A DNA stretch of 64,000 bases from an uncultured Anaerolineales bacterium (GTDB lineage Bacteria; Chloroflexota; Anaerolineae; B4-G1; SLSP01): contig CAZCTC010000010.1 of the NCBI GenBank assembly GCA_964501335.1, forward strand, positions 1-64,000, in the 5' to 3' direction. A program made the translations under genes and the position numbers. This document shows, piece after piece, positions 44,011-62,058 of the stretch. The stretch's first letter is position 1, and each line of letters starts with the position of its first letter. The notes below the pieces were generated by a model. That model did not search any database, was not told where the DNA came from, and saw only the letters and a list, made by a program, of their open reading frames with translations.

Positions 44011-44032
44011 GGGGAAAAGGCGGAGGTTCAGC

Positions 44033-45502: not shown

Positions 45503-45549
45503 CAGGTCTGGTAGCGGCTGGCTGCCTTTTTCATGCAGGAGGTAAGCCC

Positions 45550-47214: not shown

Positions 47215-47232
47215 TCTTAACAGGAGGTTGCG

Positions 47233-47571: not shown

Positions 47572-49109
47572 TGTGGGATTCTTTTTGCCGCGCCAATCGG
47601 GCCTTTTTGCGCCGATTGGCCGGAACCTGGGAAGCGCAGGGCTGGCAGGCCTATTTTCTGGCGGATCGGGATGGGCGATGGCTGTGGCCTCCGGTTCCTG
47701 TTGCCTTATCTCCCGAGGCCATTGTTCACGAGCTCCCGCCGGCAGGATGGGAGATTTTACCGCTTTGTGTGGCGGGGGGAGGATTTATCGGCTGTTCGCC
47801 GGTGACCTCTCATGGGGAGCTGGCGGCTCAGGCTTTGCTTTTGGAACAGCTTTTATCGCGGGAACTCGAACTTGAGGCGATGGCCGGGGAACTGGCCGAG
47901 GCTTACGATCAACTGGTGGCGATGTATCGGGTTTCTGAAGCAACGCGTTCTCAGTTGAGTTTGCATGACATTCTCAGCTCATTTGTGTTGATGGCTTTGA
48001 GATTGAGCGGGGCTGTTCACGGCTTTGCCGTGATCCTTTATGGACAGGAATTCCGTTGTATTATGAGTACGTTGCCTTCCGGTCCTGAGCCGGTGATGCC
48101 GCTGTTTCAGCAGGCCCGCCTTCAACGGCGTTCTATTTTAGGCAATGCTCCACGAGAATTACGGCAATGGGCTACCCGGCTTCCGGCATGGATTGAACGG
48201 GGGTTGATTATCCCTATTGCAGTGGAAGGGGAAATCGTTGCCGGTTTGGGACTCTTCAACAAGGCTACGGATTTCACTTCGGGGGATTTAAAACTTCTCG
48301 ATGCCCTGGCCAATGAGGTGGGGGTGATTGTGGAGCGGGCTCGTTGGCAGGCTCGCTTGTTGGTCCAGGAGCGGGTGCGGCGGGAATTGGAGATTGCGGC
48401 GGAAATCCAGGCTCGAATGTTGCCCCGTATTTTGCCTCAGGTGCCGGGGTTGGAAATTTCAGCCCATTGCCGGCCGGCCAATGAGGTCGGAGGTGATTTT
48501 TACGATTTTGTCCGCCATCCTGGCGGCGCCCTGGGGGTGGTGTTAGGAGATGTGACCGGCAAGGGCGTTCCGGCGGCGCTCTTTGTCACCGTGGCCCATA
48601 TTTTGTTGCATAGCGGCCTGACCTATACTCAAACGCCCTATGAGATGGTGTTGCGATTGAATTCGGATTTGTACGAAGAGCTTAACCAGGCGGGGATGTT
48701 TATTACGCTTTTCCTGGCTTATTATTATGCGGAAAGTCGGCGGTTGGTGATGGTCAATGCCGGACATGCGCCGGTGTTGCTTTATTCGGCGGCGCAGAAA
48801 CGTTGTAAGTTGTGCATTGCCGATGGCCCCCCTTTGGGTGTACTTCCTCAAATTTTAAGTTTTGAACAAACGGTGGTGTTGACGCCGGGGGACATTTTAG
48901 TGGTGTTGAGTGATGGGTTTAATGAAATGATGAATCCTCAAGGCGAGTTGTTTGGGATCGATCGGCTGATTGAGCTGGTAGAATCCAATGCCGATACGAC
49001 GGCGACCGATCTGCGGATGCGGCTCTTTAAAGCGGTTACGTCGTTTGCTCAGGAAACTCCTCAGGGTGATGATCTGACGCTCTGTATTCTCAAAGCGACT
49101 GCTGAATAA
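47571..49109 (+). CDS. GAF-domain PP2C (SpoIIE/RsbU-like) serine phosphatase
   Basis: C-terminal PP2C motifs GGDFYDF..GDVTGKGVPAAL..LSDGFNE..GDDLTL. An N-terminal GAF-like sensor region. ATG overlaps the STAS stop (TGATG). Confidence 0.8.
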   Translation: MWDSFCRANRAFLRRLAGTWEAQGWQAYFLADRDGRWLWPPVPVALSPEAIVHELPPAGWEILPLCVAGGGFIGCSPVTSHGELAAQALLLEQLLSRELELEAMAGELAEAYDQLVAMYRVSEATRSQLSLHDILSSFVLMALRLSGAVHGFAVILYGQEFRCIMSTLPSGPEPVMPLFQQARLQRRSILGNAPRELRQWATRLPAWIERGLIIPIAVEGEIVAGLGLFNKATDFTSGDLKLLDALANEVGVIVERARWQARLLVQERVRRELEIAAEIQARMLPRILPQVPGLEISAHCRPANEVGGDFYDFVRHPGGALGVVLGDVTGKGVPAALFVTVAHILLHSGLTYTQTPYEMVLRLNSDLYEELNQAGMFITLFLAYYYAESRRLVMVNAGHAPVLLYSAAQKRCKLCIADGPPLGVLPQILSFEQTVVLTPGDILVVLSDGFNEMMNPQGELFGIDRLIELVESNADTTATDLRMRLFKAVTSFAQETPQGDDLTLCILKATAE

Positions 49110-49149
49110 TTTTTGTTTATACCTTCTTCGAAAAGGAGATCCAACGGGA

Positions 49150-49626
49150 ATGATCATGAATGGTGATCCGGAATGCGTCTCTTTGCGGTTTCCCAGTCAC
49201 ACCCGGTATTTGGGGTTAGTGAGCGGCTGCGCGGCTGAAATTTGTCGAATGATGGGATCGGCTGGTAACGCTGCTCTGGTTTATGATGTGCAGTTGTCCA
49301 TTAATGAAGCTGTGGTCAATGCCATTCAACATGCCTATGCCGGCCGCAGTGATGGTTGGGTGGCTGTGGATTTTTCCCTTTATGCAGATCGTTTGGAAAT
49401 TTCGATTATCGATTGGGGGCAGGGGTTTGATTGGCAGGAGTTACCCGTTCCCGATCTTTCGCAACCTTTAGAACATGGATACGGTTTATATCTGGTATGC
49501 CGGGTGATGGATGAGGTGATCTATCATGCTGATCCTATTCAGGGTAACTGCCTGCATTTGATCAAACGTCTGCCCGGCCCGCTCAGGAAGGATGGTAGCG
49601 ATGGCAACGATTCTGGTGGTCGATGA
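49150..49626 (+). CDS. Anti-sigma regulatory factor, HATPase_c Ser/Thr kinase (RsbW/SpoIIAB-like)
   Basis: GHKL motifs NAIQHAY..DWGQGF..GYGLYL. Confidence 0.8.
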   Translation: MIMNGDPECVSLRFPSHTRYLGLVSGCAAEICRMMGSAGNAALVYDVQLSINEAVVNAIQHAYAGRSDGWVAVDFSLYADRLEISIIDWGQGFDWQELPVPDLSQPLEHGYGLYLVCRVMDEVIYHADPIQGNCLHLIKRLPGPLRKDGSDGNDSGGR

Positions 49627-49966
49627 TGATGTGGCCAGCCGCCGGCTGGTCACTTACATTTTGGAGCGGCATCAACACATTCCAATTCCTGCCTGTAGTG
49701 CGCAGGAAGCTCTGGAATGGCTGGAGGAGAATTGTCCGGAGCTGGCCGTGATGGATATTGCGATGCCGGTGATGGATGGAATGGCTTTGCTTCATCAGTT
49801 GCGAGCCGATCCGCGGTTTCAGAAGCTGCCGGTGTTGGTGGTGACGGCCAGCAGTTATGAGGAGGCCCGCGTCATTGCCGGTGTGGAAGGCGCGAATGGT
49901 TTTTTGACGAAGCCGATCAGTTCGCAGGACCTTCTGGAAGCGGTTGAGCGGCTTTTATCTCGATAA
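49601..49966 (+). CDS. Stand-alone response-regulator receiver (REC) protein
   Basis: ILVVDDD..AVMDIAMPVMDG..TKP. Start taken at MATIL (GGAAGGA upstream). Overlaps the kinase 3' end. Confidence 0.85.
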   Translation: MATILVVDDDVASRRLVTYILERHQHIPIPACSAQEALEWLEENCPELAVMDIAMPVMDGMALLHQLRADPRFQKLPVLVVTASSYEEARVIAGVEGANGFLTKPISSQDLLEAVERLLSR

Positions 49967-49985: not shown

Positions 49986-50034
49986 TTAAGCCATTGGGGC
50001 GCGCTGTCGCAGACAGCGCGCCCCAATGGCTTAA
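49986..50034. repeat. 49-nt perfect palindrome (ttaagccattggggcgcgctgtc-gca-gacagcgcgccccaatggcttaa)
   Basis: Read directly. A 23-bp stem. Lies at the 3' end of the EPS/partner-switch operon. Confidence 0.65.
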
Positions 50035-50082
50035 TTGTAACTTGGGCGGTGAGCCCAGAAAACAAGGCAAAGAAAAACTCAT

Positions 50083-50113
50083 TTTTCGGCGGCTTTCCGA
50101 AGCCGCCGAAAAA
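50083..50113. repeat. GC-hairpin repeat (tttttcggcggc-tttccgaa-gccgccgaaaaa)
   Basis: Same subfamily as 19815 and the truncated copy at the window start (about 40..60). Confidence 0.65.
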
Positions 50114-50364
50114 TGAAAGACAGCACTCTCTTCCCATCCAGCGTGTCGTTTTCTACCAAACAAAGGCTTTTTGCGGGACGCAAGAAACCGAAGATGTGCA
50201 GGCCGAGGGGCGTAAAAGGTACTTGGGGCGGTTTGCCTCTCTTGCAGCTTGGTGTATACTCTACCTTGTTCGCTTACCTGCTGATCGGTAATTTCCCAAG
50301 CTTTTTCATTTGGTGCTGGTTTGGTTTCCCATTAGTCAGAAAAACAAGACCAGGAAAGTACTTT

Positions 50365-51690
50365 ATGGCAAAACCATCCATCGTTTGGAACGTAGAACAG
50401 ATCCTTGCGTTTGCGCCCGATGCCCAGGTGGGGAAGGCGGGACAGGGTTTGACCCGGCCTGCGAAGTGGACCGACCTGGGGTGTAACGAGGAAGCTGTTT
50501 GGGGTCTTCAAAAGGGCTCCGGCAGTGAACCTTATCAGGTTGTAGTGGACCCCGTAGCTCCCGCTTTCAAATGCAGTTGTCCCAGCCATAAAAAACCCTG
50601 TAAACATGCGATCGGTTTGTTATTGCTGGCCCAGAGCAATTTGAAGGCTTTTACTGAGGCCGATCCGCCGGATTGGGTGAAGAGCTGGCTGGCAGGACGG
50701 GCGGCTGCGGCAGCGAAAAAGGCCCGGACGGATAAGTCGCCTGTGGATGCGGAGGCTCAAGCCAAACGGGCGGCTAAACGGGAAGCCAAGGTGCAACAGG
50801 GGATTGATGCTCTTTATCTCTGGCTGGAAGATCTCATGCGCCAGGGATTGGGGTCTCTTTCGAGTCAGCCGACCTCCTTTTGGGAGACCCAGGCGGCGCG
50901 GTTGGTGGATGCTCAGGCTGCGGGATTGGCGCGCCGGGTGCGTGATTTGGAATCGGTGATTTATTCCGGGGAAGGGTGGCCGGCGCGAATGCTGGAACGC
51001 CTGGGACGCCTCTATTTGTTGCTCGATGCTTTCGGGCGTCTGGAATCTCTGCCTCCCGACTTGCAGGATGAAGTGCGAACTCAGGTGGGCTGGAGCCAGG
51101 ATCAGGATTCGCTGCTGAAGGTCGACGGCGTGCGGGATCTCTGGGCGATTGTAGGACAGCGAGAAACCGAAGAGGATCGGCTGCGGGTGCGGCGGACCTG
51201 GTTGTGGGGAATTCAGAGCCAGCGAGGTGCGCTGGTTTTGGATTTTGCAGCTCCCGGTCAGACTTTGGAAGGCGGCGGGGCTCCCGGCATCCTGGTGGAT
51301 GGGGAATTGGTTTTCTGGAACAGCCCTTATCCCCAGCGAGCGATTTTCAAAAATCGGGGCATTTCTCGCCCTATGGATAGGCTTCCCGGCTATTCGGGGG
51401 TGCAGGCGGCTCTCGGAGTCTACGGGGCTGCCCTTGCTGCGAATCCCTGGATGGATCAGTTCCTTTTCCTTTTAGATGAGGTCCGACCTGTGTTGCAGGG
51501 TTCCACCTGGTGGATCTGTGACCGGGAGAATGCTCGCCTGCCCCTCTCCATCGTTCCTCAAGAGGGCTGGCGGTTGATGGGGATGAGCGGGGGGCGCCCC
51601 TGTGTGTTGGCGGGGGAGTGGAACGGTGAAAAACTGACTCCGCTCGGTGTCTGGGCTGAAGGTGTTTTTACCGTTTTCCGAAATGCCTGA
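50365..51690 (+). CDS. SWIM zinc-finger protein
   Basis: SWIM CxCx(n)CxH signature in FKCSCPSHKKPCKHAIGLL. Start reassigned to ATG 50365 (AGGAAAG upstream) because the ORF's 5' part overlaps a hairpin repeat. Confidence 0.7.
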   Translation: MAKPSIVWNVEQILAFAPDAQVGKAGQGLTRPAKWTDLGCNEEAVWGLQKGSGSEPYQVVVDPVAPAFKCSCPSHKKPCKHAIGLLLLAQSNLKAFTEADPPDWVKSWLAGRAAAAAKKARTDKSPVDAEAQAKRAAKREAKVQQGIDALYLWLEDLMRQGLGSLSSQPTSFWETQAARLVDAQAAGLARRVRDLESVIYSGEGWPARMLERLGRLYLLLDAFGRLESLPPDLQDEVRTQVGWSQDQDSLLKVDGVRDLWAIVGQRETEEDRLRVRRTWLWGIQSQRGALVLDFAAPGQTLEGGGAPGILVDGELVFWNSPYPQRAIFKNRGISRPMDRLPGYSGVQAALGVYGAALAANPWMDQFLFLLDEVRPVLQGSTWWICDRENARLPLSIVPQEGWRLMGMSGGRPCVLAGEWNGEKLTPLGVWAEGVFTVFRNA

Positions 51691-51734
51691 CCTCTTTGCC
51701 TCTTTTTGTCTATGTTAAATCCCGGAGGTGAAAT

Positions 51735-53282
51735 TTGAGCCTGTGGTCTGACTATGTGGCTGCTGCCTTGGTGGGGACAGCCCGGGCCGGATTGCCTGCT
51801 TTGTCCAGTCCGACGACCCCTCTGGAAAAATTGGTGGCTCAGTTGCAAGGGCTGCCGCCTGAACGTCAATTGTTGGCTGCCAGTGCTACCGTGGCACTCT
51901 GGCAGCAGGCCGGGGTGGAACCGTTGGTGGCCGGCGATGGGCTGCCGGCTGAAGCCGAAGCCGAGAAGGAATCGTTTTGTTCCAGTCAGGCGACGGCGTT
52001 GTTGACCCGCATTTTGCAGGGGGAGCTCCCGGCGTTGCTTCCGGAATGGCTGCGGCGCTTGCGGGAATCCCACGGGGTGCTGCCGTTGCGGGTGCTGCCG
52101 GAAATGTTGGATATGGCGGTGCAGCAGGCTTATCTGCAGGATGCCATTGTGCCGGTTTTAGGAAGTCGGGGGCGCTGGTTGGCGGCCCACAATGTGACCT
52201 GGACCGAGCTGTTGTTGCCTGAAACGCCGGAAGCTCAGCTGGAAGCCTGGCAAACGGGCAGCCGGGGGGTGCGGCGAGCGCTGTTGCGTCAGGCACGTCA
52301 AGCCGATCCTCAACGGGCCTGGACTCTGTTACATGCCAGCTGGAGCCAGGAGGCCGCGGCGGAACGGGCGTCGTTCCTGGAGTTGTTCAAAGTCGGTCTG
52401 AACTCTGCGGATGAGCCTTTTTTGGAGACGACCCTGGATGATCGCAGCAAGGTGGTGCGGGGGGTGGCGGCGGAGTTGCTTTCTCAGTTGCCTGGGTCCG
52501 GATTGATGCAGCGGATGAAGGCTCGCCTGGAGCCCTTGATTGCGCTGGGAAAGGGGCGCCGTCTGATGAGCGCCGAGAAGTTGAAGGTGACCCTGCCGAC
52601 TGAATGTGATGCGGCGATGGAACGGGATGGAATTGATCCTAAACCACCTTCGGGCATCGGGGAGCATACCTGGCTGTTGTTGCAGATCATCGCGGCGGTC
52701 GATCCGGCCTATTGGTGCGAACATTGGGAAAAAACGCCCGATGAACTGATCCATCTGGCGAAGGACAGCGATGAAGAACGGGCGCTCTTGGAAGGTTGGG
52801 CCCGGGCTGCCATCCGCTGCCGCCGGGAAGATTGGGCCAGGGCGCTCCTTTTCCGCTGGATCGAGAAGCCCTGGACGGCCGTGGCCCTGCGGCAGGCGCC
52901 TTATACCTTTATCGAACAAGAAGCTTTGATCCGGTTGGTGCCGCAGGCCGATCTGGAAGATCGTTTGATTATGTTGTCGGGGACAGCGGTGGGAATGAAA
53001 GATGAAGGCCGTCTGTTGTTGACGATTTTCCAGGGCCATAAACGGCCCTGGGGGGCGGATCTGACGACGGCTTTTATTCATATGATGCGCTCTTTCCTCA
53101 AAAAGAAAGTAGGGGGCTATTGGTATTGGTGGAATGCGCTGGCGGAGCTGGCGCTCTACGCCGACCCCCAACTGGTCAGGGAATCCAGTCAGGGATGGCC
53201 TGAGAATATGTCGCGACAGTCTTCGCTGGATCAGTGGAATTCCATTTTGGAGTTCCGTCGAACCATGAATGAAGCTTTCTAA
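51735..53282 (+). CDS. Large alpha-helical protein (DUF5691-like) of the SWIM/MoxR/vWA cassette
   Basis: TTG start with GGAGGTG RBS. Leu/Ala-rich helical repeats. Sits between the SWIM and MoxR genes. The DUF name is from memory. Confidence 0.5.
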   Translation: MSLWSDYVAAALVGTARAGLPALSSPTTPLEKLVAQLQGLPPERQLLAASATVALWQQAGVEPLVAGDGLPAEAEAEKESFCSSQATALLTRILQGELPALLPEWLRRLRESHGVLPLRVLPEMLDMAVQQAYLQDAIVPVLGSRGRWLAAHNVTWTELLLPETPEAQLEAWQTGSRGVRRALLRQARQADPQRAWTLLHASWSQEAAAERASFLELFKVGLNSADEPFLETTLDDRSKVVRGVAAELLSQLPGSGLMQRMKARLEPLIALGKGRRLMSAEKLKVTLPTECDAAMERDGIDPKPPSGIGEHTWLLLQIIAAVDPAYWCEHWEKTPDELIHLAKDSDEERALLEGWARAAIRCRREDWARALLFRWIEKPWTAVALRQAPYTFIEQEALIRLVPQADLEDRLIMLSGTAVGMKDEGRLLLTIFQGHKRPWGADLTTAFIHMMRSFLKKKVGGYWYWWNALAELALYADPQLVRESSQGWPENMSRQSSLDQWNSILEFRRTMNEAF

Positions 53283-53310
53283 TTAACCATAAAGAACTTA
53301 AGGAGAACTT

Positions 53311-54396
53311 ATGGAGACGAATCTGCTACGCCAACATGCCGAACAGCAATTTGCCGAGGAGCTGCATGAGCTGGCCAGGGTGGACACCCGTGCTCGCCCT
53401 CCCAAGTGGAAGCTTTCGCCCTGGGCGGTAACGACCTATCTGTTGGGGGGCAAGCTGTCCAGCGGCTTTGTCGTTTCGCCCAAGTACATCGGCAACCGGG
53501 CTTTGATGGAAATTGCCGTGGCGACGTTGACGACGGATCGCGCTTTGTTGCTTTATGGGGTGCCCGGGACCGCCAAGAGCTGGGTCTCGGAACATCTGGC
53601 CGCTGCCGTCAGCGGGGATTCTACAATGATCGTCCAGGGGACGGCGGGGACCAGTGAAGAGGCCATTCGCTACGGCTGGAACTATGCCAAACTGCTCACT
53701 GACGGTCCTTCGATCGATGCCCTGGTTACCAGCCCGGTGATGCGGGCGATGACCGAGGGCAAGATTGCCCGCGTGGAAGAGTTGACCCGTATTCCTTCGG
53801 ATGTGCAGGATGCGCTGATTACGATCCTTTCTGAAAAATCGCTGCCGATTCCCGAACTCAATTCGGAGGCGCAGGCGGTGAAGGGGTTCAATATCATTGC
53901 GACGGCCAATAACCGCGATCGCGGCGTCAATGAACTTTCCAGCGCGTTGAAGCGCCGTTTCAATACGGTGGTGCTGCCGGTTCCCAGTACGTTGGAAGAG
54001 GAAACCAAGATCGTTTTGCAGCGCGTGGCTTCGTTGGGCAAGGCGCTGGAGCTGCCGGCGGAGGCGCCTTCAGCGGATGAGGTGAAGCGGATTGTGACGA
54101 TCTTCCGCGAGTTGCGCGACGGCACGACGATCGACGGCAAGACCCGTCTGAAGTCGCCGAGCGGCACGCTGAGCACGGCGGAAGCGATTTCGGTGGTCAA
54201 CAGCGGGCTGGCGTTGGCCGGCTATTTCGGCGACGGCCAGTTGCGGGCTTCGGATATGGCCTCCAGCATTACCGGCGCTGTGGTGAAAGATCCGGTGCAG
54301 GATCGGATTGTCTGGCTGGAATATCTGGAGACGGTGATCAAAGAACGCGATGGTTGGAAGGATCTCTATCGGGCGTGCCGTGAGATGGTGGATTGA
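53311..54396 (+). CDS. MoxR-like AAA+ ATPase
   Basis: Walker A LLYGVPGTAKS, Walker B/sensor region IARVEELTR..ATANN. Size and topology fit MoxR/AAA_5. RBS AAGGAG. Confidence 0.85.
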   Translation: METNLLRQHAEQQFAEELHELARVDTRARPPKWKLSPWAVTTYLLGGKLSSGFVVSPKYIGNRALMEIAVATLTTDRALLLYGVPGTAKSWVSEHLAAAVSGDSTMIVQGTAGTSEEAIRYGWNYAKLLTDGPSIDALVTSPVMRAMTEGKIARVEELTRIPSDVQDALITILSEKSLPIPELNSEAQAVKGFNIIATANNRDRGVNELSSALKRRFNTVVLPVPSTLEEETKIVLQRVASLGKALELPAEAPSADEVKRIVTIFRELRDGTTIDGKTRLKSPSGTLSTAEAISVVNSGLALAGYFGDGQLRASDMASSITGAVVKDPVQDRIVWLEYLETVIKERDGWKDLYRACREMVD

Positions 54397-54479
54397 GGAT
54401 GCGGTGGGCGTGAGCCGCTGCAAAGATGAACGGTACCTATCTGGCTTGCCGATGACACCCATAACAAGGAGGCTGTACG

Positions 54480-56861
54480 ATGGCGCCTTCGGGGAGTGAT
54501 CCTTCTGTCCGGATTTTCGGTATCCGCCACCATGGGCCGGGTTCGGCGCGTAATCTGGTGGCGGCGCTGAAGGCGTTTGCGCCCGACGGGATTTTGATTG
54601 AAGGGCCGGTCGAGGCGAGCGATTTGATCGCCATGACGGCTAATCCCAAAATGAAACCGCCGGTGGCACTGCTGGTCTATGTCCCTGATCGGCCGCAGTG
54701 TTCCGGTTTTTATCCTTTTGCGGTTTTTTCTCCGGAATGGCAGGCCATGCAGTATGCTTTGAAAAACAACCTGCCGGTCCGGTTTATGGATCTGCCGCAG
54801 CAAAACTGGCTGGCTTTGAATCCGGCCGCGGAAGAGGAATCGCTTATTCCCATACTTCCGGCGGAAGGGGAAGCAGCGGCGGCACCGGCGGCTGAGCCTG
54901 AGCCTGAGGCGCCGGCAGCTTCTGTGGACTCGACAGCCTGTGAGGCCGATGGGGGCGAGGCGGTGGATTTGATGACGATCGCGGCTGATCCACTGGATCT
55001 GCTGGCCAAAGTGGCCGGCGCGGAGAGCGGCGAGATCTGGTGGGGGCAGCTGGTCGAGGAACATAAGGAAGAGCCGGAGCTTTTCCCGGCGATTCTGGAG
55101 GCGATGGGGGCGTTGCGGATGCTCGATAAGGACGGCATCCCGACGGCAGATCCCCGCGATCCGGTGGAGCCGCTGCGCGAGGCTTCGATGCGGACCATCA
55201 TCCGGGCGGCTCAGAAAGAAGGCTGGCAGCGCATCGCGGTGGTCTGCGGAGCCTGGCATGCGCCGGCCCTGGTGCCTTTGACCCGGACGGTCAAATCCGA
55301 TCGGGATCTGTTGAAGGGACTGGCCAAAGTTAAAGTGGAGGCGACATGGGTGCCGTGGAGCTACGGCCATCTGGCGCGCGAAAGCGGTTACGGCGCGGGA
55401 ATTTTGTCGCCGGGCTGGTATGAGCATCTCTGGCGGACGCCGCAACATACGGCGGTGAAGTGGCTGGGTCGGGTGGCCAAGTTGCTGCGCCACGAGGATC
55501 TGGATGCCTCGGCCGCTCAGGTGATCGATGCGGTGCGGCTTTCGGAGGCGCTGGCGGCGATCCGCGGATTGGCTCGCCCCGGTCTGACTGAATTGAATGA
55601 AGCGGTGCTGACGGTTTTCTGCTTCGGCAATGCGGTCCCCTTGAAGGTGATCGAGAAGCAGATGATCGTGGGCGAGAAGCTGGGGGAGGTGCCGGCCGAT
55701 ACGCCGGGGGTGCCGTTGCAGGCCGATCTGGCGGCGTTACAGAAAAAGCTGCGGATGCTGCCCAAGCCTGAGGCGGAGACAAAGGATCTGGATCTGCGGG
55801 AGCCGATGGATCTGGCGCGCAGTACCCTGCTGCATCGGTTGAAGCTGCTGGAGATTCCGTGGGGTAAACCGGGACGTTCGGGCGGCGGCAAAGGGACCTT
55901 CCATGAGATATGGACGTTGAAATGGGACCCGGCTTTTTCGGTGGCGCTGGTCGATGCCTCTCATTGGGGCAATACGGTGGCGACGGCGGCGCTGGGGTTG
56001 GCGACTTTCAAGGCTGAGAATGCGCCTAATCTGGGATTCCTGACCGGATTGCTGGATCAGGTGCTGCTGGCCGATCTGCCGAAGGCGGTGGGGCCGGTGA
56101 TGACCGGTATCCAGGCGCGAATGGCGAGAAGCGGCGATGTGGCGGGGCTGATGGATGCGATTCCGCCGCTGGCGCGGGCGATGCGTTATGGCACGGTGCG
56201 TCAGACTTCGGGGACGGCGCAATTCGATTTTAAGGCTTTCAACGAGATCCTCGATGGGATGGTCACCCGTATCTGCATCGGGTTGCCGCTGGCCTGCGCT
56301 TCGCTGGACGACGCGGCGGCGGATGCAATGTTGAGCCTGATCGAATCCACGCAGGAGAGTCTGGATCTGTTGCAAAACGAAAGCTGGTTGACGAGCTGGC
56401 GGCAGGTGTTGTTGCGGCTGGCCGATCAGGGTGGGTTGCACGGGTTGATTGCGGGGCGTTGCACCCGGATGCTGTTCGATGTCGGGATGCTGGATGCGGA
56501 GGAAGTGGCGAAACGGTTGGGCCTGGCCCTTTCTCCGGGCAACGGTCCGGAGGCCTCGGCGACCTGGCTGGCCGGGTTGCTGCGAGGCAGTGGGCTGTTG
56601 TTGTTGCACGATGCGAAACTCTGGTCGATCCTGGACGGCTGGGTGCGGGATCTGTCGGCGGACCATTTTATCACCGTCTTGCCGCTGCTGCGGCGGGCTT
56701 TCTCGGCCTTCACGCCGCCTGAACGGCGGCAGATGGGCGAGCTGGTGGTCCGGGGGGTGAAGAAATCCCATGGACCTGCCGATCTGGCCGTGGATGAGGA
56801 ACGGGCCAATGCCGTGTTGCCTCAGCTGGCCCGGCTGTTGGGCCTGAGTTTGAACGAATAG
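54480..56861 (+). CDS. Large protein (DUF5682-like) with N-terminal TraB/TIKI-like motifs
   Basis: 793 aa. N-terminal IFGIRHHGPGSA..(about 230 aa)..VVCGAWHAPAL resembles the paired GxxH motifs of the TraB/PrgY/TIKI/GumN superfamily. The rest is helical. RBS AAGGAGG. Confidence 0.55.
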   Translation: MAPSGSDPSVRIFGIRHHGPGSARNLVAALKAFAPDGILIEGPVEASDLIAMTANPKMKPPVALLVYVPDRPQCSGFYPFAVFSPEWQAMQYALKNNLPVRFMDLPQQNWLALNPAAEEESLIPILPAEGEAAAAPAAEPEPEAPAASVDSTACEADGGEAVDLMTIAADPLDLLAKVAGAESGEIWWGQLVEEHKEEPELFPAILEAMGALRMLDKDGIPTADPRDPVEPLREASMRTIIRAAQKEGWQRIAVVCGAWHAPALVPLTRTVKSDRDLLKGLAKVKVEATWVPWSYGHLARESGYGAGILSPGWYEHLWRTPQHTAVKWLGRVAKLLRHEDLDASAAQVIDAVRLSEALAAIRGLARPGLTELNEAVLTVFCFGNAVPLKVIEKQMIVGEKLGEVPADTPGVPLQADLAALQKKLRMLPKPEAETKDLDLREPMDLARSTLLHRLKLLEIPWGKPGRSGGGKGTFHEIWTLKWDPAFSVALVDASHWGNTVATAALGLATFKAENAPNLGFLTGLLDQVLLADLPKAVGPVMTGIQARMARSGDVAGLMDAIPPLARAMRYGTVRQTSGTAQFDFKAFNEILDGMVTRICIGLPLACASLDDAAADAMLSLIESTQESLDLLQNESWLTSWRQVLLRLADQGGLHGLIAGRCTRMLFDVGMLDAEEVAKRLGLALSPGNGPEASATWLAGLLRGSGLLLLHDAKLWSILDGWVRDLSADHFITVLPLLRRAFSAFTPPERRQMGELVVRGVKKSHGPADLAVDEERANAVLPQLARLLGLSLNE

Positions 56862-56874
56862 GAGGCCGGGAACG

Positions 56875-58059
56875 ATGGCAAAAGGATCGACCTCAATGGA
56901 AGTGGTGGATGAGCGCACCCGGCGCTGGCGTCTGATTCTGGGCGGCGGCGAGGCCGATGGGACCGGAATGTGCGCCGGAATAGGGGGCGGTTTGAGTGCG
57001 GAGGATATCGGGATGGATAAGGCGCTGACGGCGCTTTACGACAGCGATCGGAGCGCCGGTCTGGGCAGCTCGGCTCCCAATGTGGCGCGCTGGCTGGGCG
57101 ATATCCGCACCTATTTTCCGCAGAGTGTGGTGCAGGTTTTGCAGAAGGATGCTCTGGAGCGGTTGGATCTGAAGCAGATGTTGATGGAGCCGGAGATGTT
57201 GGAACAGATCCAGCCGGATGTCCATCTGGCGGCGACGCTGGTTTCACTCAAGAGCGCGTTGCCGGGTAAGACGCGGGATACGGCGCGGGTGGTGGTACGC
57301 AAGGTGGTGGAAGATCTGGAGCGCCGTCTGGGCGAGCCGCTGCGCCAGGCGGTGCGGGGCAGCCTGGACCGTACGGCGCGGACTTTTCGCCCGCGTTTCA
57401 ATGAAATCGACTGGAACCGGACGATTCGGATCAACCTGAGCCGCTATCAGAAGGATTATCACACGATTATCCCGGAACGGCGGGTGGGCTATCCCCGGCG
57501 GCGCGGGTCGGCGCTGCGGCATATCGTGCTGTGCGTGGATCAGAGCGGTTCGATGGCCTCTTCGGTGGTCTATGCCGGGATCTTCGGGGCGGTGCTGGCT
57601 TCGTTGAAGGCGGTGAGCACCCGGGTGGTGGTTTTCGATACCGAGGTGGTGGATCTGACGGAGATGATTGCCGATCCGGTGGAGATGTTGTTCGGGACGC
57701 AGCTGGGCGGCGGTACCGATATCAATCGGGCGCTGGCTTATTGTCAGACGGTCATCGACAAGCCGCAGGATACCATTCTGGTGTTGTTGAGCGATATGTA
57801 CGAAGGGGGCAACGAGACGGAGATGATCCAGCGGGCCCGGGCCCTGGTGGATTCCGGGGTGCAGATGATCGGGTTGCTGGCGCTGGACGATCACGGGGCG
57901 CCGTCGTACAGCCATCGGGTGGCGGCGGATCTGGCGGCGCTGGGCGTGCCGTCGTTTGCCTGCACGCCGGATCAGTTCCCGCAGATGATGGCGGCGGCCA
58001 TTCAGCGGCAGGATATGTCGATGTGGGCGGCGACGGAAGGGATTGCGATCGCCCACTGA
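56875..58059 (+). CDS. vWA-domain protein (MoxR partner)
   Basis: MIDAS DQSGSM..GGGTD. C-terminal vWA domain, N-terminal helical region. Confidence 0.8.
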   Translation: MAKGSTSMEVVDERTRRWRLILGGGEADGTGMCAGIGGGLSAEDIGMDKALTALYDSDRSAGLGSSAPNVARWLGDIRTYFPQSVVQVLQKDALERLDLKQMLMEPEMLEQIQPDVHLAATLVSLKSALPGKTRDTARVVVRKVVEDLERRLGEPLRQAVRGSLDRTARTFRPRFNEIDWNRTIRINLSRYQKDYHTIIPERRVGYPRRRGSALRHIVLCVDQSGSMASSVVYAGIFGAVLASLKAVSTRVVVFDTEVVDLTEMIADPVEMLFGTQLGGGTDINRALAYCQTVIDKPQDTILVLLSDMYEGGNETEMIQRARALVDSGVQMIGLLALDDHGAPSYSHRVAADLAALGVPSFACTPDQFPQMMAAAIQRQDMSMWAATEGIAIAH

Positions 58060-58070: not shown

Positions 58071-58128
58071 AGAGCATTTTGTAAGGGCGCCGGCCATAGG
58101 CCGGCGCCCTTATAAAATGCTCTTTTTA
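58071..58128 (+). terminator. Intrinsic terminator after the vWA gene
   Basis: agagcattttgtaagggcgccggcc-atag-gccggcgcccttataaaatgctct followed by TTTTT. Confidence 0.7.
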
Positions 58129-58141: not shown

Positions 58142-58251
58142 CATTTTAGCATCCCGCAAAAGGCTTTCGTTCGGCTTGAAGCGACGCGCGGGAGGGGGAG
58201 AGAGTTTTTTTGTTTATGTTTTCGCGGGCTTCAGAAAGCCCGCGAAAACAT
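58142..58251. repeat. Composite palindromic element, tandem copy 1 (hairpin core 58216..58251)
   Basis: cattttagcatcccgcaaaaggctttcgttcggcttgaagcgacgcgcgggagggggagagagtttttttgtttatgttttcgcgggc-ttcagaaa-gcccgcgaaaacat. Confidence 0.7.
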
Positions 58252-58281
58252 GGGCTTTTTTTCTGTGCCCCTGATGCCGGG

Positions 58282-58390
58282 CATTTTAGCATTCCGCAAA
58301 AGGCTTTCGTTCGGCTTGAAGCGACGCGCGGGATGGGGAGAGAGTTTTTTTGTTTATGTTTTTGCGGGCTTCAGAAAGCCCGCGAAAACA
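58282..58390. repeat. Composite palindromic element, tandem copy 2 (hairpin core 58356..58390)
   Basis: Near-identical to 58142..58251 (about 130-bp tandem duplication). Confidence 0.7.
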
Positions 58391-58580
58391 GGGGTTTTTC
58401 CTTTACTTGTTTTCCGGGCTCACCGCACAGGTGGGAATTTATTCAAAATGTTTTTTATTCCGGCGATTTTTGACTTCGGCCCAAGGTGGGCTATACTGGG
58501 GGCATATTTATAACTTTGCGACTTATGGCGCTTGTGTGCGTATTTCTTATCTTGTAAGGAATGTAAGGAGGAGACGGATC

Positions 58581-59342
58581 ATGAGCAAACGACCTGGTGG
58601 TGAGTTGGCGACGCGGCCTTTGCACTTCATCTGGATTGCAGACTGCTCGGGTTCCATGACGACGGACGGCAAAATTCAGGCTTTGAACAACGCGATTCGA
58701 GAGGCGATTCCGCACATGCAGAAGGTCGCCGATGAGAATCCCAATGCTCAGGTTTTGATCCGGGCGATCAAGTTCTCCAATGGGGCGCAGTGGCATATTT
58801 CTCAACCGACGCCGGTGGAAGATTTCAAGTGGGTGGATCTGCCGGCCGAGGGCGTGACCGATATGGGGCGTGCTCTGACGATGGTGGCCGAACAGTTGAA
58901 GATCCCGCCCATGACCGACCGGGCGCTGCCTCCGGTGCTGGTGCTGCTTTCCGATGGGCAGCCGACCGATGATTTCAACAAGGGGTTGAAGGATCTGTTG
59001 GATCAACCCTGGGGCAAGAAGGCGGTCCGGATTGCCATCGCGATCGGCGCCGATGCGGATAAGGATGTTTTGCAGAAATTTATCAACCATCCGGAATTGC
59101 GGCCGTTGCAGGCCAACAATCCGGAGGCGTTGGTGCGCCATATCAAGTGGGTCTCGACGGCGGTGTTGAAGTCGGCATCCGCACCCGCCAGCCAGACGAC
59201 GGCTCCGACTCCGACTCCGACTCCTGCGGGTGTGCCGGTGGACAACGCCGGAGGCGCTCCGAGCCAACCCGCTGTTTCCAATGTGCCGATGCCGGTAGCG
59301 CCGCCGCCGGATGACCCCAATTCTTCCGCGGACGTCTGGTAG
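58581..59342 (+). CDS. TerY-like vWA-domain protein
   Basis: MIDAS DCSGSM. Compact vWA (about 190 aa) plus Pro/Thr-rich tail. RBS AGGAGGAG. Immediately upstream of a PP2C gene (TerY-P arrangement). Confidence 0.75.
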   Translation: MSKRPGGELATRPLHFIWIADCSGSMTTDGKIQALNNAIREAIPHMQKVADENPNAQVLIRAIKFSNGAQWHISQPTPVEDFKWVDLPAEGVTDMGRALTMVAEQLKIPPMTDRALPPVLVLLSDGQPTDDFNKGLKDLLDQPWGKKAVRIAIAIGADADKDVLQKFINHPELRPLQANNPEALVRHIKWVSTAVLKSASAPASQTTAPTPTPTPAGVPVDNAGGAPSQPAVSNVPMPVAPPPDDPNSSADVW

Positions 59343-59346
59343 GTCG

Positions 59347-60591
59347 ATGGAGATGAGCGGCGGGAAGCCTTCCTTGAAGTGGCGGGCCATCGGCCGCTCG
59401 GTTATTGGCGCTTCTCATATCCGGTCGGGGATGCCGAATCAGGATGCGATTCGGCTTCCGGATGAAGTAGAAGGAGCGCTGATCCTGGCGGTTTCGGATG
59501 GTCATGGTAGTTCGCGGTACTTCCGCAGCGACCGGGGCGCGCGCATGGCGGTGGATTGTTCAGTGACGCTGCTGAAGGAATTTTTGAAGGGGCAGCCGGA
59601 TCTGACCAATCTTTCGTCGATCAAGCGGACGGCCGATGAGCGGTTGCCTCAGGAACTGGTCCGGCGCTGGCATGCGGCTGTGGCAGAAGATCTGAGCCGT
59701 GAACCGTTGACTTCGGAGGAATTGACCATCCTGGAGCGGAAAGAGAGCAGTAAAGCCCGCCAGTCGGTCGAGCGTAAGCCGATGCTGGCTTATGGGGCCA
59801 CGTTGCTTGCGGTGGTGGTGACGGAAGCCTTTATTTTCTACCTGCAACTGGGGGATGGCGATATCCTGACTGTTTCGGAAGATGGGGAAGTCTCGCGACC
59901 GATTCCTCACGATCCGCGATTGATGGCCAATCAGACGACTTCGCTGTGTGCGGATGATGCCTGGCGGGATGTGATTGTGCGGTTGCAGGCCGTGGTGGGC
60001 AAGCCCCCGGCGTTGATCCTGCTTTCTACGGACGGGTATGCCAACTCATTTGTGAATGAAGAGGCGTTCCTGAAGGTCGGGAGCGATATCCTCGATATTA
60101 TCCAGGAATCGGGGCTGGCTTTTGTGGAAAAGGATCTGGAGAGCTGGCTGACTGAGGCCTCCCGGGCAGGCAGCGGCGACGACATTACGATGGGGATTGT
60201 CTGTCGGATGGATGTCCCGGGCGTGACGTGGGGCCCGAAGGAGACTCCAGCCATGCTGGTCCAGAAACCGCCGCAGATTCATGAACGGCCGAAGGCGGAA
60301 GAGCCGGTTGAGGCTAAAAAAAACGAACCGGCTGAGGCCGAGGAATCAAAGCCGGAAGAAGAGAAGCCCGTCGAAGCGAAGCCTGCGGAAGGCAAAGAAG
60401 CTGAGGCGAATTTGGCGGCGGCGGAAGAGCCGGCCATCCCTCAACCTGCGGAACCGGCTTCACTTCCTGAGCGGGGAGAATCGGAATCTCCGGCGAAAGA
60501 TTCCGGGGGCACTCCCGGCGATGAGGATTCTGACGGCTATCCCTGGATGTATCCGACGGTGACCCAACCGCCGAGAATTAAGCCGCGCTAG
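59347..60591 (+). CDS. PP2C-family Ser/Thr phosphatase with acidic low-complexity C-terminal tail
   Basis: ASHIRSGMPNQDA..LAVSDGHGSS..; C-terminal Glu/Pro/Ala/Lys-rich tail. Confidence 0.8.
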   Translation: MEMSGGKPSLKWRAIGRSVIGASHIRSGMPNQDAIRLPDEVEGALILAVSDGHGSSRYFRSDRGARMAVDCSVTLLKEFLKGQPDLTNLSSIKRTADERLPQELVRRWHAAVAEDLSREPLTSEELTILERKESSKARQSVERKPMLAYGATLLAVVVTEAFIFYLQLGDGDILTVSEDGEVSRPIPHDPRLMANQTTSLCADDAWRDVIVRLQAVVGKPPALILLSTDGYANSFVNEEAFLKVGSDILDIIQESGLAFVEKDLESWLTEASRAGSGDDITMGIVCRMDVPGVTWGPKETPAMLVQKPPQIHERPKAEEPVEAKKNEPAEAEESKPEEEKPVEAKPAEGKEAEANLAAAEEPAIPQPAEPASLPERGESESPAKDSGGTPGDEDSDGYPWMYPTVTQPPRIKPR

Positions 60592-60642
60592 GTCAGGAAA
60601 AACTTACCAGCCTATTGCGGGCAACCCTTAAATCTATACTTA

Positions 60643-60675
60643 TATTTTCGCCCGCCTCAACAGGCGGGCGAAAAT
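60643..60675. repeat. GC-hairpin repeat (attttcgcccgcc-tcaaca-ggcgggcgaaaat)
   Basis: Same subfamily as 17239. Confidence 0.65.
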
Positions 60676-60698
60676 GTAAGAATACAAGCGAGACGAAT

Positions 60699-62042
60699 TT
60701 GAACGAGCGACCACGTCAAATACTCCAACAGATTATCCAACAGTATGGGGTCAGTGTCTGTGACAATCCCCGGCGCTGTGAGGGGCTATTGCGGGATTTG
60801 GGCGGAGAATTCCGGCGGGAGATCTTTGTGTTGGTCAGCGCCCTGGAACAGGGGGTCCCGCAAGACTTGCAGTCGATGGGCAAGCAGATGCCCTATCCTG
60901 TCGTTCAGTCCCAATTGACCCGGCGTTTGCAGGAAGACCTGGCCCTGGATGAAGCGGCGGCGCGGTGGGCCGTGGATTCCTGGGCGCTGGCATTGGGGAT
61001 GTCGGTGCCGACTTTGCCGACCGGTAATTCGGGGACGGTGGCGACCCCGGTCACGCCGACGCCGCCGGAGCCGGCAGTCAAGAATCCGACGGGGAATGTG
61101 CCGGTGACACTTCCGGTCACGCCGCCGGCCAGTTTGCCGACGGGATTGCGGCCGGGAACGGTGCTGCCCGGACATCAGGGCGAGGCGGTGGTAGCGGCGT
61201 TCAGTCCAGACGGCCGCTGGCTGGTTTCTTCCGGCTTTGATGGGCAGGTGCGGTTTTGGGATGTGAATTCGGGGCGGGAGAGCCGCCATCAGGAATGGAG
61301 TGGGGGATGGGTCAACGATATCGCTTTTGTGCCGGGTGAGGCCGCGATTGCGTTGGCGGGCAGCGACGGTATGGTGGGGGTATGGAGCGCTCCGGAAGGC
61401 CGGGAAGTGCGGCGGATGCGGGGCCATGACGGGCCGGTTTTAGGCGTGGCCTGTAGTCCGGATGGCCGGCAGATGGCTTCCAGTGGGACCGATAAGCGGG
61501 TGCGGTTGTGGGATTTAGGCGATGGGCACGAGTTGCTGCGGCTGGAAGGCCAGCAGGAGTCGGCGCCGGCGGTGGCCTTCAGTCCGGACGGCCGGTTGCT
61601 GGCGGCCGCAGGCGGCTGGGAGCGGACGGTGCGCATTTGGGAGTTGCCTTCGGGTAAGTTGTTGCATCGTCTGGTGGGACATGCGGCAAATGTGACTTCG
61701 GTGGCGTTCAGTGCGGACGGTTCGCTGCTGGCTTCGGCCGGTTGGGACGAGACGCTGGTTTTCTGGAATCCGTTGACGGGTGCCGAGGTGAAGCGGGTGG
61801 TGGAGAGTTCCAGCCTGCCCCATTTGATTTTTACGATGGCCTTTGCGCCGAACGGGCGGACGGTCGTGACGGGGGGTTGGGATCGGACGATCCGGCTCTG
61901 GAATGTGGAGGGGGGGAAAGAGATCCAATCCACGACGGAGCCTCTGACCATGGTGACCTGTCTGGTTTTCAGTGCGGACGGCCGATTGGTGGCCTCGACC
62001 ACCCGGGACGGCAAAGTTCGATTATGGACGGTATTGGGATAA
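60699..62042 (+). CDS. WD40-repeat protein with N-terminal conserved domain shared with the downstream LRR protein
   Basis: Seven WD40-like repeats (FSPDGRWLVSSGFDGQVRFWD..). Start placed at TTG 60699 after the hairpin, by analogy to the paralogue's MDDRPRH. Pro/Thr linker. Confidence 0.65.
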   Translation: MNERPRQILQQIIQQYGVSVCDNPRRCEGLLRDLGGEFRREIFVLVSALEQGVPQDLQSMGKQMPYPVVQSQLTRRLQEDLALDEAAARWAVDSWALALGMSVPTLPTGNSGTVATPVTPTPPEPAVKNPTGNVPVTLPVTPPASLPTGLRPGTVLPGHQGEAVVAAFSPDGRWLVSSGFDGQVRFWDVNSGRESRHQEWSGGWVNDIAFVPGEAAIALAGSDGMVGVWSAPEGREVRRMRGHDGPVLGVACSPDGRQMASSGTDKRVRLWDLGDGHELLRLEGQQESAPAVAFSPDGRLLAAAGGWERTVRIWELPSGKLLHRLVGHAANVTSVAFSADGSLLASAGWDETLVFWNPLTGAEVKRVVESSSLPHLIFTMAFAPNGRTVVTGGWDRTIRLWNVEGGKEIQSTTEPLTMVTCLVFSADGRLVASTTRDGKVRLWTVLG

Positions 62043-62058
62043 AAGGAAGCTCAAAGAG

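Follow-up and report, generated by a model that had tools for sequence, protein, structure and literature searches.

The ddrTUVWX operon of Deinococcus (Deide_18730-Deide_18690) belongs to the IrrE/DdrO RDR regulon (Blanchard et al. 2017, PMC5552922) and has been described as part of the radiation/desiccation regulon of these bacteria (PMC2669436, PMC4007540, PMC5552922). The operon is preceded by an RDRM and shares its regulon with recA, ssb, uvrA, uvrB, ddrA-D and pprA. DdrO acts as its repressor, and radiation brings about its induction, which requires IrrE and exceeds 10-fold and 5-fold (PMC5552922). A locus of D. taeanensis has also been given as ddrTUVWX (PMC9510100). The operon is missing from D. 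radiodurans and is therefore dispensable for extreme radioresistance. Damage induction of the operon is known from Deinococcus only. Among MoxR AAA+ ATPases, a YehL subfamily is recognized (Snider & Houry 2006, as cited in PMC3893208). Four MoxR-vWA systems have been described as conflict systems; they depend on a VMAP, iSTAND, FtsH or beta-propeller component and on a vWA protein that carries hypervariable effector domains, and the paper describing them makes no mention of SWIM or YehL (Kaur, Burroughs, Iyer & Aravind 2020, PMC7159879).

We analysed a stretch of 64,000 nucleotides from an uncultured Anaerolineales bacterium, hereafter the window, in which five tightly spaced, co-directional open reading frames occupy positions 50365-58059 of the + strand, as an earlier note on this DNA had observed. 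Because all five products are homologous to Ddr proteins and three to Yeh proteins, it is almost certain that this cassette is a homologue of ddrTUVWX, the core of which is also found as yehL-yehM-yehP in Escherichia coli. The cassette is not new, having been named previously as ddrTUVWX in Deinococcus and yehLMP in E. coli; the earlier note, which called it uncharacterised, had overlooked these names. Its description of the function as unassigned is supported. A 2018 review counts the ddrTUVWX operon as unstudied.

Layout and regulation of the locus

The features of the locus are as follows.

49987..50033, no strand: GC-rich perfect hairpin with a 20-bp stem, 3' of the upstream receiver gene
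50078..50117, no strand: second hairpin with an 18-bp stem, unlike the first in sequence
50233..50260, +: sigma-70-like promoter candidate TTGCCT-16-TATACT, a consensus match only
50365..51690, +: SWIM gene, ddrT homologue, 441 aa
51735..53282, +: DUF5691 gene, ddrU homologue, 515 aa, TTG start
53311..54396, +: MoxR AAA+ ATPase gene (AAA_5), ddrV/yehL homologue, 361 aa
54480..56861, +: DUF5682 gene, ddrW/yehM homologue, 793 aa
56875..58059, +: CoxE-type vWA gene, ddrX/yehP homologue, 394 aa
58074..58120, +: intrinsic terminator with a 20-bp stem (11 GC pairs) and a T-run, 15 nt past the vWA stop codon

The genes are separated by gaps of 44, 28, 83 and 13 nt, in order, and each is preceded by a Shine-Dalgarno-like site. 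The longest open reading frame called by the program for the SWIM gene would begin at 50113. However, the 120 homologues listed are all 413-466 aa long, nearly all of them 434-466 aa, which favours the start at 50365 given in the earlier note, about 105 nt 3' of the promoter candidate. The first hairpin probably terminates or delimits the upstream operon. The strong upstream hairpins and the downstream terminator that had been reported to bracket the cassette are present, but the hairpins are two distinct palindromes rather than copies of one repeat.

The D. taeanensis locus has the same layout as the window cassette, and its products share 35% (DdrT), 38% (DdrU, local alignment), 69% (DdrV), 42% (DdrW) and 54% (DdrX) identity with those of the window. 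The sole exact RDRM-type palindrome in that locus overlaps the ddrT promoter. In 49 non-Deinococcus loci, the window included, the sequence 5' of the SWIM gene contains neither an RDRM nor a LexA box, and no palindrome there is common to the loci; therefore, DdrO/IrrE control and radiation induction cannot be assumed for the window.

The five predicted proteins

In the profile search for which the earlier note had called, all five proteins matched Pfam families, and the DUF5691 and DUF5682 numbers given in that note were correct. No transmembrane segments were predicted in any of the five. The products of yehL, yehM and yehP are 40%, 27% and 36% identical to their counterparts in the window, with matching Pfam families (YehM to DUF5682, E = 2.4e-98).

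The DdrV homologue matches AAA_5 (E = 7.9e-37), its match to bpMoxR being sub-threshold (22.4 vs 27 bits), and among solved structures it is closest to Midasin and NorQ. It contains a Walker A motif (GVPGTAKS, G83-S90), a Walker B variant (R154-V-E156-E157), sensor-1 N200 and R215/R216, all of which are invariant among 58 orthologues. The DdrX homologue matches VWA_CoxE (E = 7e-50) and combines a helical N-terminal region with a complete MIDAS (motif DQSGS), the residues of which (D222, S224, S226, T281 and D307) are invariant in 53-56 of 56 vWA orthologues. The MoxR-vWA remodelling pair with intact MIDAS noticed earlier is thus present.

The DdrU homologue matches DUF5691 (E = 8.6e-125) and is alpha-helical, with a HEAT-like repeat segment in its centre (aa ~184-271). 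HEAT_2 is also matched by 6 of 30 DdrU orthologues, the PDB profile matches are alphaRep proteins, and in one genome the protein is fused to the SWIM protein (L060:5994-8891). Both the HEAT-like character of DUF5691 and this fusion are new here.

The DdrT homologue matches Pfam SWIM (E = 4e-05, 23.5 bits, cut-off 19.6) through the motif CSCPSHKKPCKH, with the zinc-finger residues C70, C72, C79 and H81. An N-terminal beta-sheet bearing this finger is followed by a helical bundle (aa ~103-251) and by two beta-barrel, OB-like domains (aa ~256-437). The protein resembles the cullin-RING ligase substrate receptor ZSWIM8 (PDB 9rwz), a likeness new here, as are the terminal OB-like barrels; Foldseek supports it only weakly (rank 29, E=0.13), the likeness spans just part of both proteins, and the cassette lacks cullin, BC-box and ubiquitin machinery. 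A substrate-recognition role, which had been suggested for the SWIM protein, fits this structural match.

These features also bear on a reading in which the SWIM/OB subunit recognises damaged DNA or proteins trapped on DNA, which the complex would extract and cleave as a bacterial analogue of p97-SPRTN/Wss1 DNA-protein crosslink repair. Such a role would suit the company of recA and the other genes of the RDR regulon, the RDRM on the ddrT promoter in a second Deinococcus species, the mildly basic SWIM and helical parts of DdrT (pI about 8.8) together with its OB-like barrels, and the kinship of the ATPase with Midasin, which strips factors off a nucleoprotein particle. Also in its favour, E. 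coli has yehF (WGR) and DUF4132 genes as neighbours, and DUF4132 genes lie 3' of the cassette in two Bacteroidota genomes. However, the OB-like region is acidic across homologues (median pI 5.6) and only weakly matched in fold (best Foldseek E about 0.01), Pfam detects neither a nuclease or helicase nor any known DNA-binding domain, and the 49 non-Deinococcus loci lack damage-regulator boxes upstream. We regard this reading as decidedly unlikely.

The DdrW homologue matches DUF5682 (E = 6.6e-256). In the predicted structure, its N-terminal domain (aa ~10-300, with an acidic disordered insert at aa 118-167) has a TIKI/TraB/erythromycin-esterase fold and leads into a large alpha-solenoid (aa ~310-790), an architecture of DUF5682 that is new here. 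The earlier label of this 793-aa protein as TraB/TIKI therefore holds at the level of fold but not of sequence: Pfam TraB gave no match, and hhalign against E. coli YbaP was not significant. Not all TIKI-fold proteins are hydrolases: ChaN is a haem-binding protein, and the catalytic motif is missing from PMT. In the orthologue alignment, His, Glu and Arg residues of the domain are invariant and may form a putative 2His/2Glu/Arg-type hydrolase site, which would include H17, E41, E86 and H260; the TIKI family signature consists of 2His/2Glu plus a basic residue (PMC6254334).

Residues at the ATPase, MIDAS and SWIM motifs and at the putative hydrolase site are all intact and invariant, the catalytic motifs across phyla.

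Distribution and genomic context

The neighbourhood test across phyla that had been proposed bears out a conserved five-gene cassette: all five genes are collinear and co-directional in 48 of 58 loci that offer sufficient flanking sequence, across about 15 phyla. The DUF5682 signature occurs in at least 595 species genomes and is enriched in lineages with large genomes or a filamentous or multicellular habit, such as cyanobacteria, Chloroflexota, Planctomycetota and Myxococcota. The best matches of the window cassette are in Anaerolineae/Chloroflexota MAGs, at 58-61% identity. Clustering of open reading frames across all 80 loci revealed no other conserved neighbour, and Pfam/PADLOC scans found no family recurring more than three times among 123 neighbour proteins from about 25 loci.

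This context bears directly on the possibility that the cassette is a metallocentre or cofactor-insertion chaperone, in which the MoxR-vWA pair drives insertion of metal or tetrapyrrole into a client enzyme. The models would be CoxD-CoxE(-CoxF), NorQ-NorD, MoxR, CobS-CobT-CobN and BchI-BchD-BchH. The metal- or cofactor-binding subunit would be DdrW, which has a ChaN-like fold and invariant His/Glu/Cys. Known insertion systems, however, adjoin their client genes, whereas no neighbour of the cassette recurs in the surveys of 80 loci and 123 neighbour proteins above. Membership of a DNA-damage regulon in Deinococcus would not be expected, known insertases have nothing that corresponds to the SWIM and HEAT subunits, and the His/Glu/Arg pattern of DdrW suits the hydrolytic TIKI signature. 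We therefore consider this role unlikely.

The same surveys address the proposed link to NTP-dependent conflict and defence systems, in which the SWIM protein would sense an invader and the MoxR-vWA switch would gate DdrW as a toxic TIKI-fold effector. Effector gating by MoxR-vWA switches is known from the four conflict systems of Kaur et al. (PMC7159879), the TIKI fold occurs in several toxins or effectors (RRSP, HopBA1, PMT; PMC6254334), and the phyletic spread given above would be in keeping with such a role. A Methylosinus plasmid carries VapC and Imm26 genes near the cassette. Prolonged DdrO depletion leads to apoptotic-like death in D. radiodurans, yet this species lacks the operon (2018 review). 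On the other side, PADLOC gave no significant match on the window, and the flanks contain just three generic kinases among the 123 neighbours and otherwise no defence genes, so that co-localisation with defence islands, which the earlier note had suggested checking, was not seen. The cassette falls outside the systems of Kaur et al. (PMC7159879), containing none of their additional components; its architecture is fixed, without variable effector domains (the vWA orthologues used are 360-470 aa), and its conservation across phyla is strikingly high for a conflict system (median identity 75% for the ATPase and 63% for the vWA protein). The E. coli operon is single-copy and core (5,353/5,426 genomes), and a DUF5682 search found the cassette in only 1 of 50,697 phage and 37 of 72,556 plasmid records, the latter mostly megaplasmids or mislabelled chromosomes. 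A role in defence thus appears very unlikely.

A possible remodelling complex and its relatives

As a whole, the cassette is best explained, with modest confidence, as a ddrTUVWX-homologous AAA+/vWA remodelling complex that responds to stress and includes a hydrolase subunit. Stress-triggered remodelling and processing is a likely role because the Deinococcus operon is DdrO-repressed and radiation-induced. We infer complex formation among the five proteins from the operon structure and the one fusion. How such a complex might work is more tentative, and we offer a five-subunit, self-contained cytoplasmic AAA+ machine only as a possible scheme, by analogy with RavA-ViaA, NorQ-NorD, CoxD-CoxE and Midasin. 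DdrV would form a MoxR ring hydrolysing ATP, with DdrX as its vWA adaptor, the MIDAS metal site of which would hold a partner or client by one of its acidic residues. DdrT, with its ZSWIM8-like SWIM module, helical bundle and two beta-barrels, would be the receptor for the client or a ligand, and DdrU a HEAT-like solenoid scaffold bound to it. DdrW, a putative hydrolase domain of TIKI/TraB/erythromycin-esterase fold on a large alpha-solenoid, would probably cleave or de-modify the client after the ATPase remodels or extracts it. The client gene would lie outside the cassette neighbourhood, and the likely target would be a damaged or regulatory cytoplasmic protein or a nucleoprotein complex.

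Several described systems share parts of this arrangement. The N-terminal domain of DdrW has no significant sequence match to the TIKI/TraB/PrgY/ChaN/erythromycin-esterase superfamily, and it differs from the described contexts of that superfamily in its fused alpha-solenoid (~480 aa) and MoxR-vWA operon setting. The vWA-MoxR ternary conflict systems resemble the cassette in joining a MoxR-vWA pair to further dedicated components and in their enrichment in large-genome and multicellular bacteria, but the window lacks VMAP, iSTAND, FtsH and beta-propeller components and its vWA protein lacks variable effector domains. CoxD-CoxE, NorQ-NorD and RavA-ViaA likewise combine an AAA_5/MoxR ATPase with a MIDAS-bearing vWA adaptor, which in the window falls in the CoxE Pfam family, and a presumed ATP-driven remodelling logic is common to these systems and the cassette (PMC7159879). 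However, their genes adjoin those of client enzymes, whereas the window cassette has no linked client, and they lack SWIM, DUF5691 and DUF5682 partners.

The E. coli yehL-yehM-yehP-yehQ operon is closer, as its ATPase, DUF5682 and vWA genes are adjacent and co-directional and it includes a SWIM protein. Its order differs, with the ATPase gene first and the SWIM gene last; it contains no DUF5691 gene, YehQ (614 aa) has nothing but the SWIM motif in common with DdrT, and its WGR-domain (yehF) and DUF4132 neighbours are absent from the window. Deinococcus ddrTUVWX differs in its RDRM operator and, in D. taeanensis, in an additional 78-aa open reading frame in the ddrV-ddrW interval, which in the window is the 83-nt gap. 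The window host is not a Deinococcus. The window cassette and ddrTUVWX share SWIM, DUF5691, MoxR AAA+, DUF5682 and CoxE-type vWA genes in identical order.

Architecture and surroundings of the cassette

The earlier note described five co-directional genes in this region, and both the ORF listing and Pfam matches for all five products bear this description out. The DUF5691 and DUF5682 labels given there were also right, since Pfam assigns precisely these families to the second and fourth products.

The cassette and its bordering features (window coordinates; cassette genes from the ORF listing, with Pfam matches)
49987-50033 and 50078-50117: two strong hairpins upstream of the cassette, unrelated to each other in sequence
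50365-51690 (longer ORF 50113-51690), + strand: SWIM gene (SWIM, 4e-05, 23.5 bits against a 19.6-bit cut-off)
51735-53282, + strand: DUF5691 gene (8.6e-125)
53311-54396, + strand: MoxR AAA+ ATPase gene (AAA_5, 7.9e-37)
54480-56861, + strand: DUF5682 gene (6.6e-256)
56875-58059, + strand: CoxE-type vWA gene (VWA_CoxE, PF05762, 7e-50)
58074-58120: terminator, a 20-bp stem and T-run 3' of the last cassette stop codon
58350-63117: separate co-directional module downstream, with four genes
58350-59342: vWA protein (PF00092)
59311-60591: PP2C phosphatase
60615-62042: WD40 beta-propeller
61972-63117: LRR protein

The five genes are separated by gaps of 44, 28, 83 and 13 nt, in that order, and each is preceded by a GGAG-type ribosome-binding site. 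A start at 50113 for the first gene was ruled out by the lengths of its homologues (413-466 aa for the 120 among the matches listed); because nearly all of these measure 434-466 aa, the start at 50365 is favored. Hairpins upstream and a terminator downstream are present, as had been proposed, although the upstream hairpins are not repeats. Predicted membrane segments are absent from all five proteins, and an NCBIfam scan of the five returned nothing specific.

Between the cassette terminator and the next gene lies a 118-nt direct repeat (58142-58259 and 58282-58399; 96% identical, 140-nt spacing), both copies of which finish in a GC hairpin and T-run; these are the only two copies in the window. 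The module at 58350-63117 looks like a vWA/PP2C signaling set. On the upstream side, positions 42065-49966 contain exopolysaccharide glycosyltransferases and a partner-switching set, the latter including a WecG transferase fused to two STAS domains, a GAF-SpoIIE phosphatase, an RsbW-like kinase and a receiver domain. GC content is 0.49-0.53 across 28000-50000 versus 0.57-0.63 on either side, and the cassette begins where it climbs back; the stretch 28000-50000 may have been acquired horizontally as a polysaccharide island.

Conservation and relationship to ddrTUVWX and yehLMPQ

Clustered at 90% identity, DUF5682 gives more than 7,900 groups among the matches listed, and its signature was found in at least 595 species genomes, with one genome scanned per species. 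We examined the best 80 of these loci, which derive from Chloroflexota, Cyanobacteriota (including Melainabacteria), Acidobacteriota, Planctomycetota, Verrucomicrobiota, Bacteroidota, Pseudomonadota, Deinococcota, Myxococcota, Desulfobacterota, Methylomirabilota and Bacillota; a plasmid collection added DUF5682 loci from Actinomycetota, Fusobacteriota and Alphaproteobacteria. In 48 of the 58 loci with enough flanking sequence, the five genes are all present, collinear with those of the window and co-directional, which confirms the cross-phyla neighborhood conservation that the earlier note had proposed to check. Relative to the window proteins, median identity falls from 75% in the ATPase through 63% in the vWA protein, 48% in DUF5682 and 43% in the SWIM protein to 32% in DUF5691. 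Conservation of the ATPase, with roughly 75% identity across phyla, is unusually strong.

This gene order is that of the ddrTUVWX operon of Deinococcus. In D. deserti the operon, which was named by Blanchard et al. 2017 (PMC5552922), carries an RDRM operator, the mark of the DdrO/IrrE regulon. Irradiation induces it there in an IrrE-dependent manner, the first gene by more than 10-fold and three others by more than 5-fold (PMC5552922). The same paper reports RDRM-bearing homologues in several other Deinococcus species; in the retrieved passages, expression data on induction concern D. deserti only (PMC4007540, PMC5552922). A 2018 review, which describes the function of ddrTUVWX as unstudied, records the operon from 7 of 11 species of Deinococcus (PMC6300522). 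Using the window DUF5682 protein as a tblastn query, we located the plasmid locus of D. taeanensis (L082), whose operon has been explicitly termed ddrTUVWX, with a 78-aa extra ORF between ddrV and ddrW (PMC9510100). Its annotation contains this ORF and gives the same layout as the window: SWIM, DUF5691, AAA, DUF5682, vWA. By BLASTP, the window proteins match DdrT at 35% identity over the full length (3e-61), DdrV at 69%, DdrW at 42% (6e-164) and DdrX at 54% (1e-140). The match to DdrU is weak (38% over 71 aa, 7e-9), and both proteins are assigned to DUF5691 by Pfam or annotation. At the level of sequence comparison, all five products are homologous to Deinococcus DdrT, DdrU, DdrV, DdrW and DdrX.

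The 16-kb D. taeanensis locus has a single exact palindrome of the RDRM type, TTACGCCAGAAACATAA. It is located 20 nt 5' of ddrT, where it overlaps the -10 element of a promoter close to consensus, TTGACA-N16-TACAAT (L082:2739-2781). An RDRM-type site was not found within 260 nt 5' of the SWIM gene in any of 49 loci including the window, nor was any LexA box of five taxon-specific types found upstream of it. A de novo palindrome search upstream of the SWIM gene in the 49 loci yielded nothing significant (best p=7e-5 in 3,328 tests); the few 7-mers found there, rich in AT, are probably compositional. Damage induction is not to be assumed for the window organism.

A second relative is present in the yeh region of E. 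coli K-12. YehL defines one of seven recognized MoxR subfamilies and is described as uncharacterized (PMC3893208); the window ATPase is 40% identical to it over 362 aa (E=2e-77). As in the window, the ATPase gene is adjoined by genes for a DUF5682 protein (YehM; Pfam 2.4e-98, 27% identical to its window counterpart) and a VWA_CoxE protein (YehP; 36% identity, 1e-75). YehQ aligns with the window SWIM protein through the SWIM motif alone (BLAST E=0.087; hhalign probability 0.4%); BLAST and hhalign comparisons of YehQ as a DdrT, a DdrU or a DdrT-DdrU fusion likewise recovered only this motif. No DUF5691 gene was found in E. coli.

The flanks of the cassette were also examined. Clustering of flanking ORFs across all 80 best loci revealed no further conserved neighbor or client gene, the recurrent clusters being generic receiver and kinase families and antisense shadow ORFs. 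Among 123 flanking proteins from approximately 25 loci, each Pfam family occurs three times at most, and these proteins are housekeeping in nature (e.g., ATP synthase, ABC transporters, permeases). In two Bacteroidota, a HEAT+DUF4132 protein of about 985 aa is encoded directly 3' of the vWA gene on the same strand (L076:13617-16580 and L081:13453-16407), an arrangement that recalls the yehI/yehH (DUF4132) and yehF (WGR) neighbors of E. coli yehL. On plasmid pOB3b3 of Methylosinus trichosporium OB3b (L084), no vWA gene is annotated after DUF5682, and a recombinase, IS66 elements, VapC and an Imm26 immunity protein surround the cassette, which may here be a decaying or mobile copy.

Features of the five proteins

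The window ATPase has a Walker A motif of GVPGTAKS and an unusual Walker B motif at aa 154-157 that reads R-h-E-E, in contrast to the canonical hhhhDE. This form is shared with E. coli YehL (FEE), and it is invariant, like the other ATPase motifs, across 58 orthologues. The closest solved relatives are Midasin/Rea1 and NorQ. The vWA protein (394 aa) carries its vWA domain at the C-terminal end (Pfam stretch 154-370), with a MIDAS of DQSGS; the five MIDAS residues are invariant in 53-56 of 56 orthologues of 360-470 aa, which are 48-71% identical. Searches of PDB sequences with the vWA, SWIM and DUF5682 proteins returned no relative.

The SWIM signature of the first protein, C70-x-C72-x6-C79-x-H81, fits CxCxnCxH, and C70, C72, C79 and H81 are invariant among 43 homologues. 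At the level of fold, we assign to DdrT a putative ZSWIM8-like receptor module. The C-terminal OB-like domains of DdrT are acidic, and because of this charge a DNA-binding reading of them is weakened. DUF5691 contains a HEAT-like segment. In an uncultured Chloroflexia, the first two proteins are fused in a single 965-aa product (L060:5994-8891; SWIM protein aa 8-441, DUF5691 aa 469-957). Kinship of DUF5691 with DUF4132/YehI was considered, and hhalign found nothing. One of 30 DUF5691 ORF translations weakly matched the prokaryotic ubiquitin-like protein UBact (E=0.0072), which may be an ORF-start artefact.

[quoted passage not shown] We compared it with the signature of this superfamily, a 2His/2Glu constellation plus a conserved basic residue. 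The candidate catalytic residues H17, H18, H260, E41, E86, E234, R16 and R233, which sit at strand ends, are unchanged in 74-75 of 75 orthologues. We propose that DdrW/YehM contains a TIKI-fold domain and is a putative hydrolase. Besides DUF5682, Pfam gave no match in DdrW, whether to TraB (PF01963) or to the relatives of TraB, and hhalign against E. coli YbaP fell short of significance (probability 0.08%), its sole aligned stretch placing R233...GAWH260 over R...GALH of YbaP. An acidic, Ala/Pro/Glu-rich insert within the TIKI-like domain (aa 118-167) is predicted to be disordered (pLDDT 30-35); the matching stretch of E. coli YehM is much shorter.

Possible functions and comparison with known systems

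The earlier note, whose interpretation is supported in part, linked the cassette to defense, by way of the vWA-MoxR ternary systems placed among conflict systems. Our data argue against this link, and this evidence is itself a useful outcome of the analysis. A PADLOC scan of the five proteins gave nothing significant (best E-value 5e-4), and the only PADLOC matches at E<=1e-10 among the 123 flanking proteins were three generic Ser/Thr kinases, so that a location in defense islands was not found in these approximately 25 loci. Furthermore, of 5,426 complete E. coli genomes, 5,353 carry yehLMPQ as one chromosomal copy (98.7% for the YehLMP core), and DUF5682 occurs in only 1 of 50,697 phage records and in 37 of 72,556 plasmid records, mostly megaplasmids, chromids or mislabeled chromosomes. 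The conflict systems include as a third component VMAP, an inactive STAND NTPase, FtsH or a beta-propeller (Kaur et al. 2020, PMC7159879), which Pfam did not find in the five window proteins; a bpMoxR match in the cassette scored 22.4 bits, below the 27-bit cut-off. They also carry variable effector domains on the vWA C-terminus, whereas the window vWA protein does not. Given all of this, we consider a defense role very unlikely.

Maturation of metal centers offers another comparison. In CoxD/CoxE systems a CoxE-family vWA protein is paired with a MoxR partner, as in the window. Non-synonymous yehM mutations have been reported among those confined to copper-exposed evolved E. coli populations (PMC12409786), an anecdotal observation that is notable because the vWA partner is akin to CoxE, a protein of copper-cluster maturation. 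However, CoxD/CoxE systems are linked to a client metalloenzyme, and neither the clustered flanks of the best 80 loci nor the 123 scanned neighbors from approximately 25 loci contained a recurrent neighbor family. A metallocenter insertase appears unlikely, if somewhat less so than a defense system.

What the analysis shows is homology, kept gene order, catalytic motifs that do not vary, folds from prediction, a single fusion and the regulation in Deinococcus. The mechanism that we infer is a remodeling complex in which DdrV would form a MoxR ring, the MIDAS site of DdrX would couple that ring to a partner or client, DdrT and DdrU would serve as receptor and scaffold, and DdrW, as a hydrolase, would process the client. 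The client gene is not genomically linked to the cassette. A rival reading, in which the complex specifically remodels nucleoprotein after DNA damage, strikes us as improbable. In that reading the ZSWIM8-like receptor (DdrT and DdrU) would recognize DNA-trapped proteins or damaged complexes, the DdrV ring would extract these via the DdrX MIDAS adaptor, and the TIKI-fold hydrolase DdrW would then cleave them. It would provide a function for the last uncharacterized MoxR subfamily and for four E. coli y-genes. The cassette would then be a stress-induced bacterial counterpart of eukaryotic AAA+-segregase-plus-protease pathways (p97 with SPRTN/Wss1, or Midasin-type factor stripping), an equivalence that we regard as a long shot.

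The window locus is a new, and ordinary, member of an operon family that has been described but whose function is unexplained, and the five-gene unit is among the more widespread uncharacterized bacterial operons. DUF5682 and DUF5691 were not mentioned in the literature searched, and the retrieved Deinococcus passages make no mention of yeh genes; work on Deinococcus ddrTUVWX and work on E. coli YehL and MoxR proteins form two separate and apparently unconnected bodies. Linking them is a useful outcome of this analysis, and together with the DdrW/YehM and DdrT assignments it makes an operon of unknown function experimentally approachable in tractable organisms.
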